The notes beneath the pieces are model-generated. The model saw only the letters and a list, made by a program, of their open reading frames with translations. It did no database searches and was not told the origin of the DNA. From NCBI GenBank assembly GCA_023898385.1, contig CP060220.1, positions 10,370 through 74,369 on the forward strand: a DNA stretch of 64,000 bases, read 5' to 3'. Both the position numbers and the translations under genes were made by a program. Source of the DNA: Pseudobdellovibrionaceae bacterium (GTDB lineage: Bacteria; Bdellovibrionota; Bdellovibrionia; Bdellovibrionales; UBA1609). Of this stretch, positions 9,802-41,933 are shown one piece after another; within the stretch, counting starts at the first letter, position 1, and the number at the start of each line of letters is the position of its first letter.

Positions 9802-9887
9802 CCTTTGGCAGCTGGCTGGCATGGCATAAGCCGAAGCCCCTGTAGCTTTGCGTCCCGTGGTTTCCGCACGGTTTGCCCCTACAAAGG
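9802..9887 (-). ncRNA. c-di-GMP-I (GEMM) riboswitch aptamer
   Basis: Minus strand: CCUUUG UAGGGGCAAACCGUGCGGAAACCACGGGACGCAAAGCUACAGGGGCUUCGGCUUAUGCCAUGCCAGCCAGCUGC CAAAGG. It has GGCAAACC, a GAAA tetraloop in P2, GGGACGCAAAGC and a perfect P1 (CCUUUG/CAAAGG). G at the position equivalent to Vc2 G20 indicates c-di-GMP rather than cGAMP type. Confidence 0.93.
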
Positions 9888-10210: not shown

Positions 10211-10246
10211 TTGGGTTCCAGGTCCTAAACCTGATCACACAGCGTC
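10211..10246 (-). repeat. REP-like inverted repeat, left of RAYT
   Basis: ttgggttccaggtcctaaacctgatcacacagcgtc is the reverse complement of 11048-11083 at 34/36 positions; internal cagg/cctg hairpin. Confidence 0.9.
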
Positions 10247-10273
10247 AATGTCCACCCGATGCCATTTTGATTT

Positions 10274-10912
10274 TTAAATTATTTCACCGTCGAATAGCAC
10301 GGAGCTGTTTGTTAGCTTGTCTTTTTTGCTTTTAAAGTACTGCCGTTTTAACGCCCACCGGACGGCTTCATTTTGTTGATCGGAGGGCTTTTGGTTCAGC
10401 CACGACAACGTATCGTCTATGTTGTCAAAAAGTGTGTCGTCGAAGGCTAGTGGGATGAGCAACTTGGAGCGACCAAGCAGACCATGAAGAGTGCTGTAAG
10501 GATAATCTTCAACTCTTTCAGCCATACAAGCCTGAACCGGATTTCTATAGTTATACTTGTAGGCATTGAGGTAGTAGCTGGGATGATCTAAAATCGTCTT
10601 ATAGTGTCGGCCGGCAAATGTCTGATTAATACGATTCCCTGCTTGAGTTAGCCTCAAACTCACATTTTTTAGGAGCCGATACATGCACTGACTGATGTTG
10701 GCATCCGGTGTGGACGCTAGCAGGTGAAAATGGTTATTCATAAGAACAAAACTGTGGATTAGCAAATTATGATTAATCACTGTTAGGTATAACTCTTCAC
10801 TAAAAACATCCCATACCTGTGGCATGGGCAAGTTAAACCACTCGCGATTAATACAGCGGCCACTGATATTGTAAGGATACTTCGACTGGAGAATAGCTCT
10901 TGCTCGGGGCAT
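10274..10912 (-). CDS. REP-associated tyrosine transposase (RAYT, Y1 HUH family)
   Basis: HUH motif NHFHLL, catalytic-Tyr region YNYRNPV, YPYST; flanked by inverted REP-like repeats. Start taken at MPRARAIL. Confidence 0.88.
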   Translation of the reverse strand: MPRARAILQSKYPYNISGRCINREWFNLPMPQVWDVFSEELYLTVINHNLLIHSFVLMNNHFHLLASTPDANISQCMYRLLKNVSLRLTQAGNRINQTFAGRHYKTILDHPSYYLNAYKYNYRNPVQACMAERVEDYPYSTLHGLLGRSKLLIPLAFDDTLFDNIDDTLSWLNQKPSDQQNEAVRWALKRQYFKSKKDKLTNSSVLFDGEII

Positions 10913-11047
10913 GGATGGAACTTGCTGCAAATGCATGCCATTTTTTTCTGTCAGCTGTGTGTGTATCTGGCACTTGTAGTGTCCGAATTACATTCCACAG
11001 GGTCCGGTAACCAGGCCAATCTATTTGGGGTTAAATGGGCGGACTCC

Positions 11048-11083
11048 GACGCTATGTGACCAGGTTTAGGACCTGGAACCCAA
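11048..11083 (+). repeat. REP-like inverted repeat, right of RAYT
   Basis: gacgctatgtgaccaggtttaggacctggaacccaa; partner of 10211-10246. Confidence 0.9.
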
Positions 11084-27208: not shown

Positions 27209-27428
27209 TTCCCGTTTGCAACTCATGGCGTTAGTTGAGTCCGAGAGCGACGAAGTGGAGGGCGGCGGGCCATCGTCGTCATCCCGATGTGCATGGCGTA
27301 TCCGGGTTGCAGCACGCAGTGATGCAATCCGAAGACGACATGCGGCCACTCGGGCCTGCGACGATGGCCCGCCGCCCTCCACTTCGTCGCTCTCGGACTC
27401 AACTAACGCCATGAGTTGCAAGCGGGAA
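27209..27428 (+). repeat. Long hairpin element, copy 1 (70-bp arms, conserved structured core)
   Basis: Arms 27209-27278 and 27359-27428 are complementary with one G-U pair; core 27283-27354 is shared with 41804-41876. Confidence 0.9.
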
Positions 27429-27500: not shown

Positions 27501-27561
27501 ATATTATTATCGTAAAATACGATAATAATATATTGCATCGCACCGGGAAATTTAGTATGAT
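27501..27561 (+). promoter_or_regulatory. Sigma70 promoter with perfect palindromic operator
   Basis: atattattatcgta-aaa-tacgataataatat (27501-27531), then TTGCAT (27533) -N17- TATGAT (27556). Confidence 0.75.
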
Positions 27562-27579
27562 GAAGTTTTGGAGGTGTTG

Positions 27580-41742: not shown

Positions 41743-41933
41743 GGAGTGGAGAGAGAGGGAGGGAGGGCGGCTGAGGGGGGCCGGGAGCCATGGGATCGGC
41801 CATCACGATGTGCATTGCGTATCCGGGTTGCGGCACGCAAGTGACGCAATCCGAAGACGCAATGCGGCCACTCGTGCCGGCCGATCCCATGGCTCCCGGC
41901 CCCCCTCAGCCGCCCTCCCTCTCTCTCCATTCC
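41743..41933 (+). repeat. Long hairpin element, copy 2
   Basis: Arms 41743-41801 and 41879-41933 are complementary apart from a 4-nt bulge and one G-U pair; core shared with copy 1. Confidence 0.9.

Follow-up and report, generated by a model that had tools for sequence, protein, structure and literature searches.

The window analysed here is the whole stretch of 64,000 nucleotides (nt) taken from contig CP060220.1 of a Pseudobdellovibrionaceae bacterium (assembly GCA_023898385.1, positions 10,370 to 74,369 of the forward strand). It contains two long hairpins, referred to as copy 1 and copy 2, both of them intergenic and each formed by two long inverted arms around a conserved core. Each hairpin is probably, with a confidence slightly above even, a copy of a non-autonomous family of mobile single-stranded DNA hairpins that resembles the REPINs, is defined by its structure and is confined to one order of Bdellovibrio-like bacteria.

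Copy 1 comprises a 5' arm of 74 nt (27209-27282, plus strand) with a sequence unique to this copy, a conserved core of 72 nt (27283-27354, plus strand) and a 3' arm (27355-27428, plus strand). The 5' arm pairs with the 3' arm except for the last few bases adjacent to the core and one T/C difference; by repeat search the arms measure 79 nt with 94% complementarity. The core has a foot of type I (CCCGA...TCGGG), includes the invariant boxes GCGTATCC (27296-27303) and CCGAAGACG (27329-27337), and scores 97.8 bits against R1, a covariance model built from 28 cores. Its predicted RNA fold has an energy of -201 kcal/mol (z = -23.7 versus shuffles).

Copy 2 comprises a G-rich 5' arm of 51 nt (41753-41803, plus strand), a conserved core of 73 nt (41804-41876, plus strand) and a 3' arm (41877-41927, plus strand), the repeat search giving arms of 56 nt with 95% complementarity. 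It belongs to the class without repetitive extragenic palindromic (REP) ends, and its 5' arm contains a GGGGGG run 22-27 nt off the core. The foot is of type II (CACGA...TCGTG), the boxes are located at 41817-41824 and 41851-41859, the core scores 104.4 bits against R1 and the predicted RNA fold reaches -180.6 kcal/mol (z = -19.4 versus shuffles). Within the 5' arm, positions 41757-41780 (GGGAGGGAGGGCGGCTGAGGGGGG) match the usual G-quadruplex pattern as judged by eye; most copies without REP ends have G-runs equally far from the core. In an activated-sludge metagenome (X4), the G-run in the left arm of copy 2 is shorter by 1 nt (41775) and the right arm has CCCT inserted (41912), while 3.5 kb of flank in the same contigs are identical; these changes are strain-level slippage and apparently uncompensated.

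The positions of both hairpins, given in a preliminary description made from the letters alone, were recovered by direct inspection of the sequence and by repeat search. The two cores differ, as described there, by seven substitutions and one indel. The three compensatory pairs also hold (CCCGA/TCGGG versus CACGA/TCGTG, a G-C to T-A change in the second helix, and an A-T to G-C change in the tip helix), as do the repair of a G·A mismatch in the second helix and the word GGAGGGCGGC common to the arms of both copies.

The core, described there from two copies, is not a two-copy feature. The organism's own 3.33-Mb single-contig genome (contig C1, to which positions outside the window refer) contains 56 BLAST segments of the core, corresponding to about 54 elements, and nearly all full cores are flanked by inverted arms of 50-85 bp. 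Leaving aside six core-adjacent positions, the arms are 98.4% paired: among 2690 arm pairs there are 42 mismatches and 7 gaps. The whole unit is a rod hairpin of 170-340 nt with long arms, a mismatch-rich box of ~20 bp with its foot, and a variable tip. The foot next to the box reads ..GTGCATGG / CATGCGGCC.. and three variants of it were identified: CCCGATG...CTCGGG (type I), CACGATG...CTCGTG (type II) and CGCGTCG...GGCCGAAAGCG (type III). A census of the genome gave 87 long palindromes, 53 of them with this core; the other long palindromes are two families of REP doublets (C and D), one core-less palindrome of A type and two further families (X and Y). The census revealed no free GC-rich palindromes able to serve as targets.

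The invariant part of the element, across genera, comprises GCGTATC(C) (5' strand), C(C)GAAGACG (3' strand) and the neighbouring foot helix. In the box of ~20 bp GCGTATCC faces CCGAAGACG, and mismatches of the kinds G·A, A·G and C·A are fixed in this ungapped helix; the tip helix retains one G·T and one G·A. The stems flanking the box covary: in the 28 cores, which come from several genera, 15 of the 26 predicted pairs have changed on both sides, 94% of the cells are paired and none of 500 shuffles equalled these values. The separation of the two box strands is 25 nt in the short form of the element, ~150 nt in a long form and 45-82 nt in the related genome G019. Such variation in tip length would be intolerable for two half-sites on a linear duplex, whereas a hairpin keeps the box strands face to face, so that the box must act in the folded state. 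We infer that it is read in the folded single strand, probably by a protein. It is the mismatch as such that is kept, since the position that is G·T in this genome is A·C or G·A in G062. The selection on a folded structure proposed earlier is thus borne out, by the covariation of the core, by its invariant internal loops and by box strands that stay opposed at tip lengths from 25 to ~150 nt.

The arms, described at first as mostly unrelated between copies, do differ in sequence from copy to copy. The unique arms have no match elsewhere in the genome and none in a phage collection, and the idea of arms as captured DNA or as CRISPR-spacer-like sequences was rejected on that ground. Unrelatedness is not the whole account, as the 23 copies without REP ends share an arm length of 50-63 bp and a G-run (YCAARGRGGGG) placed 23-26 nt off the core. 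From this near-constant length and positioned G-run it follows that these arms are homologous by descent and saturated by paired substitutions.

The long form was identified in five or six cores, all outside the window (2229033-2229219, 1265724-1265911, 1035271-1035457, 564121-564306, 234522-234709 and 3199656-3199821). In it an insert of 121 nt, at one fixed site, replaces the TATCC of the 5' box. The insert folds into two or three hairpins with compensatory changes between copies, and it was found only inside cores, which have either foot type and A-type, B-type or no REP ends. A decayed copy (1974800-1975010) adjoins RAYT2, one of the transposase genes treated below. In element L150 of G019 (G019:C12:108723-108861), a relative without Y1 transposase, the tip contains a nested perfect palindrome with arms of ~35 bp, so that the apex accepts further hairpin insertions.

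Rearranged members were located at 390533-390604, 862976-863048, 234406-234443, 904965-905001, 148081-148152 and 1606968-1607078. One copy has a 27-nt tip that is exactly inverted, and another (862976) has a tip corrected to a perfect palindrome. The genome also contains three half-elements, two of which are extra to their locus and start at the apex, and the core-less palindrome of A type, which has the form expected if the upper hairpin had been deleted between short direct repeats.

Families X and Y follow the same design as the main family, with unique, near-perfect arms of 38-75 bp around a conserved core. Family X has a core of 45 nt and was located at 1608140-1608274, 2105326-2105470 and 2443153-2443291. 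Family Y has a core of ~62 nt and was located at 747028-747398, 1911021-1911179, 2697566-2697727, 2933186-2933339 and 3069281-3069417. The core of family Y (..GCGTTCGGCAGC...GATCCGAAC..) has the pattern GCGT..TCGG / CCGAA in common with the core of the main family.

A link with known transposases comes from the outer ends of some copies. An A-type sequence (AGGTACCTGCTTCCTTTTGTGGCGAC...) terminates about ten type-I copies and a B-type sequence (GGGTTCCAGGTCCTAAACCTGGTCAC...) about ten type-II copies, the REP ends being inverted at the hairpin termini of these ~20 genomic copies; in about half of the copies the termini are unique. The pairing is strict: foot type I occurs only with REP-A or no REP end, and type II only with REP-B or none. 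The A-type ends flank RAYT2 (1973902 and 1974762-1975210) and the B-type ends flank RAYT1. Since their ends are the REP sequences that flank RAYT2 or RAYT1, the ~20 copies with A or B ends are true REPINs.

RAYT1 is located in the window (10274-10936, minus strand) and encodes a RAYT-like Y1-HUH transposase of 220 aa with an HUH motif in NNHFHLL and a Tyr motif in YKYNYRNP. It matches Pfam Y1_Tnp with E = 5e-4 and NCBIfam REP_Tyr_transpos with E = 1.9e-12, the latter below the curated cut-off. Its terminal inverted repeats are a left B-type REP (10213-10247, plus strand) and a right one (11048-11081, minus strand), both with the sequence that also terminates core-bearing hairpins of B type in other parts of the genome. 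RAYT1 is one of four paralogs with a mutual identity of 34-50%, the other three being located at 1974099-1974707, 1588100-1588711 and 3055830-3056429, and each paralog has its own REP type. The two families of REP doublets are ordinary, core-less REPINs: type C (..AAAAGGTATCGGATTACTTTTGGTAGC..) with about 11 loci and type D (..AAGGTATCCCTTTCCTTTTTGCGTTGC..) with about 12, for example 158797-158886 and 248477-248578, and each of them matches the flanks of RAYT3 or RAYT4.

Two other features of the window were recorded. A c-di-GMP-I riboswitch aptamer (9804-9887, minus strand; Rfam RF01051, 62.5 bits) lies directly beside the RAYT1 unit. A perfect AT-rich palindrome of 14 bp (ATATTATTATCGTA / TACGATAATAATAT, spacer of 3 nt) is located at 27501-27531, just upstream of the gene at 27568, where it overlaps promoter-like hexamers; it is not related to the hairpin family and may be an operator.

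Outside this genome the core was identified with the covariance model in 19 of 109 genomes of the same family, which represent 12 of 35 genera; a single genome may have up to 32 or more copies. In a sample of the phylum (401 genomes) it was present in nine only, all from the same order and from three families. G000 and G004 each contain the two foot subfamilies, ..GCGGCCAC.. and ..GGCCGAAAG.., side by side, and GGCCGAAAG is also the predominant type in G062; because they coexist across several genera, the foot lineages must be older than the genera. A pattern scan of genome contigs gave one true homolog and three chance matches in coding DNA, and a metagenome search with a flanking protein gave no relatives. 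The viral contigs of IMG/VR contained no core by covariance model; 55 loose pattern matches were due to chance, all of them failing the model, and a phage vector was therefore rejected.

The hairpin is an insertion, since intergenic sites at which one species has the whole element are short and empty in its congeners. In G066 one element occupies a gap of ~200 nt between two co-directional genes, and the orthologous gap is of 26 nt in two genomes (G024 and G064) and of 15-18 nt in a third (G065). These empty sites lack both arms as well as the core, and neither arm derives from the flanking sequence; the arms thus arrive with the core, and copying of the arms from the target flank was rejected. 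Two elements of G063 are missing at the syntenic intergenic sites of G062, so that congeners differ in whether they have the element at each of the three loci examined. No target-site duplication accompanies the elements: a flanking direct repeat of at least 4 nt was found in 6 of 46, with about 7.6 expected by chance. In Logan contigs from six other sludge or digester metagenomes, those that reach into the arms show copy 1 in two metagenomes and copy 2 in one. None of them joins the flanks across either site and all break at the repeat; perfect palindromes of 170-340 bp break short-read assemblies.

The reading of the family as REPIN-like mobile hairpins would work as follows. The palindrome would become single-stranded, for example at a replication fork, and fold, and a trans-acting protein would read the box in the folded strand. 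The whole hairpin would then be cut out and joined into another single-stranded intergenic site, with no duplication of the target, the route suggested for REPINs that RAYT Y1-HUH transposases mobilise. Replication would continue only in lineages retaining the box and a good stem, which would leave the box frozen and the arms saturated with paired substitutions at constant length, and the family would be a long-lived population of hairpin replicators. Among the three options offered in the preliminary description (non-coding RNA, double-stranded RNA element, or single-stranded DNA substrate for an HUH enzyme) the last one is the best fit, given the multi-copy insertion, the lack of target-site duplication and the REP ends that flank RAYT genes. 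A RAYT homolog was identified in 16 of 19 core-positive genomes and in 38 of 90 core-negative ones.

Several observations weigh against this reading. Copy 2 has no REP end, and a clear A-type REP end on copy 1 was rejected because the similarity is marginal, being restricted to one A-type member (score of 27 versus 16.3 ± 3.2 in shuffles), with none to other members. No core was found beside Y1 genes at 18 loci in 10 genomes, using model R1 with filters off, and in G062, G021, G007, G046, G066 and G023 nothing is common to the sampled RAYT flanks and the local elements. Genomes G019 (15 copies) and G004 (8 copies), both 99% complete, contain intact elements with long, perfect and unique arms and no Y1 transposase (no PF01797 match at E ≤ 0.01), and because of them the enzyme is unproven. 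The orientation of the elements relative to replication direction (21 versus 33, p = 0.13) is not significant, in contrast to the bias of IS608-type elements. The metagenome contigs showed no transposition event, excised circle or strain-level empty site. Finally, six copies share identical 73-nt cores, loop included, inside unrelated arms, which suggests arm turnover or gene conversion among cores and is awkward for slow paired substitution alone. An autonomous parent was also considered, and was rejected on the absence of the core from the 18 Y1 loci and of shared RAYT flanks in the six other genomes.

The intact elements in genomes without a Y1 gene would be explained if the family were a separate class of structure-defined DNA replicators, with the box of ~20 bp read in the folded single strand by a protein other than a Y1 enzyme. 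Arm sequence, tip length and nested inserts would then vary freely, by analogy with a viroid rod with its conserved central region. The presence of families X and Y, of the same design and in the same genome, would under this alternative point to a general machinery of the Bdellovibrionales that copies or maintains such hairpins. We regard this alternative as unlikely.

The same Y1-less genomes could be accommodated if the hairpins were immobile: old insertions kept by the host as cruciform or hairpin sites for one of its proteins, in the way that BIME/REP sequences bind gyrase or IHF. The arms would be kept complementary by template-switch (quasipalindrome) correction in place, and the cores alike by gene conversion or by selection at each locus. 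Such correction does happen, as the perfect palindrome of core 862976 indicates, and the arms slip between strains while the flanks stay identical. Similarity beside the core jumps from identical to unrelated (772394/782242 and 807331/809252), as at the end of a conversion tract, and identical cores within unrelated arms fit as well. However, frequent correction would be expected to remove the five or six mismatches that the core conserves, and only about one copy in 50 has been corrected. The two foot subfamilies persist together in several genera, against homogenisation, presence or absence differs between congeners at every locus compared, and an occurrence in 12 of 35 genera is patchy for a host function. 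Immobile host sites are for these reasons an improbable account.

A role as structured RNA, including the non-coding RNA and double-stranded RNA elements proposed at first, is still less probable. The hairpins would be transcribed with their neighbours or alone, and the box would be an RNA-protein or RNA motif, for example one at which an RNase III-type cut in the long stem affects processing, stability or attenuation, with mobility merely spreading the RNA module. The strong covariation of the core agrees with this, as do two wobble positions of the core that are G·U on the assumed plus strand in 27 and 20 of 28 sequences, and tip loops that are often GNRA-like (GAAA, GCAA). Many copies lie only a few nucleotides from a stop codon or within an operon, and hence will be transcribed. 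The box has GUA opposite GAA, a combination which we take to resemble the loop-E / sarcin-ricin core.

Against an RNA, the plus strand that G-U pairs had seemed to favour is not favoured across the family: on the strand of the core, the 42 arm mismatches comprise 14 of G·T (G·U) type and 15 of A·C type. The two strands of the core are nearly equal under RNA parameters (-36.6 versus -36.0 kcal/mol); under DNA parameters the plus strand folds better in 41 of 41 copies, which is weak evidence. The elements are found between convergent genes (13), divergent genes (11) and tandem genes (22), and in the last group 8 have the orientation of the genes and 14 the opposite one, so that orientation is random with respect to flanking transcription. 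No conserved promoter or terminator accompanies the hairpins. Rfam was searched with the window, with each hairpin and with the long-form copies, under gathering as well as E-value thresholds, and gave no real match to the hairpins, in agreement with the earlier expectation of an undescribed element: the only match at gathering score in the window was the unrelated riboswitch, and the best matches on the hairpins were plant and animal miRNA-precursor models, far below threshold and reflecting only the shape of a long hairpin. No RNA run contains the hairpin, and four metatranscriptomes that contain the riboswitch of a relative have no core reads, a result that is uninformative. The A·C or G·A at the wobble position in G062 and the copy with an inverted tip also argue against an RNA. 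The inverted tip belongs to a set of signatures at the DNA level, together with the strand symmetry of the arm mismatches, the palindrome-corrected tip, the half-elements starting at the apex and the core-less palindrome shaped like the trace of a deletion. The data give no preference to an RNA role, although transcription and side effects on neighbouring mRNAs are possible.

That the core of ~60 nt is itself mobile and homes into the tips of existing hairpins (REPIN spacers or other palindromes), the arms being older and unrelated, agrees with the identical cores in unrelated arms, with a tip that takes nested inserts (the 121-nt insert at one site in five or six cores, the palindrome in the G019 tip) and with the precedent of REP dimers inside long palindromes (PMC3733652), but it is very improbable, as the 87 palindromes of the census include no free targets (the remainder being REPIN-C and -D, the A-type footprint and two sister families with their own cores), both arms are absent with the core from the empty sites matching the G066 element, the strict association of foot types with REP ends (I with REP-A, II with REP-B) speaks for common descent over random homing, and the arm length and positioned G-run shared by copies without REP ends indicate that the arms belong to the element.

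The way in which REP and REPIN repeats are copied, and the reason for stems that vary yet stay paired, have been unsettled for decades. The present family separates what is constrained (a short mismatch box in a folded strand) from what is free (arms and tip), and so offers a concrete target of recognition. It also provides natural controls, namely copies with and without RAYT-linked REP ends and genomes with and without Y1, which may show whether RAYTs suffice or another enzyme moves the hairpins. The hairpins are located in promoter regions and at operon junctions and may affect the expression of neighbouring genes.

Among described elements, the miniature transposable elements with inverted repeats (MITEs) of DDE type (Correia/NEMIS, ERIC and RUP; PMC2229807) are also small, non-autonomous, intergenic and capable of forming hairpins, and ERIC has long forms with insertions at fixed sites. 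The present family differs from them in having no target-site duplication, no conserved terminal inverted repeats in half of its copies and no parent insertion sequence. The attC sites of integrons are, as proposed for the present family, folded single strands recognised by structure, with extrahelical or mismatched bases and most of the sequence free to vary. However, the boxes of attC are at the base and its tip is variable, whereas here the box is close to the tip and it is the base that varies, and the copies are dispersed instead of forming cassette arrays. The ends of IS200/IS605 elements and their palindrome-associated derivatives are imperfect hairpins with conserved unpaired or mismatched bases, which a Y1-HUH enzyme reads on one folded DNA strand; these elements also insert with no target duplication. 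They differ in having two subterminal hairpins and not a central one; in the present family no core was found beside the Y1 genes examined, and there is no significant replication-strand bias.

The GTAG/CGTC-tagged REPs (Di Nocera et al. 2013, PMC3733652) have a short conserved hairpin centred in a longer palindrome whose empty form was not found in the genome, the same study describing REP dimers inside long palindromes for which the empty form was never found, and those of CGTC type have no dedicated transposase. Their definition is a CGTC at one end of a stem of 8-9 bp, a loop of 4-5 nt and a tail of 3 bp. In the present family the minus strand has CGTC directly 5' of the tip hairpin and the loops are of 3-5 nt, but the stems, compared by description, are of 12-15 bp with fixed mismatches, and the surrounding palindromes are unique to each copy with no consensus.

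The closest described system is REPIN/RAYT (Bertels & Rainey 2011, PMC3116915, PMC3337134; Nunvar 2010, PMC2817692). As in REPINs, the elements are intergenic, multi-copy long hairpins often located just past stop codons, they insert with no target-site duplication, and their stem varies from copy to copy while remaining paired. Two subfamilies end in REPs that also flank single-copy RAYT genes, and there are several RAYT paralogs with their own REP types. In contrast to REPIN/RAYT, nothing in the elements of other genera matches the RAYT flanks sampled there, two genomes contain elements and no Y1 transposase, and a clear REP end is missing in half of the copies, the two window copies among them. 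The preliminary description had called the element the reverse of a REPIN, with conserved middle and variable ends, and this was overstated: no two REPIN spacers are identical, yet all form a hairpin (PMC3337134), and about 20 of the copies studied here do have conserved REP ends. What stands of that view is the conservation of the apical box. The most conserved part of the family is not its ends, as in REPINs, and the departure from the REPIN description is a central or apical box of mismatches common to the REP types, to several genera and to the copies without REP ends.

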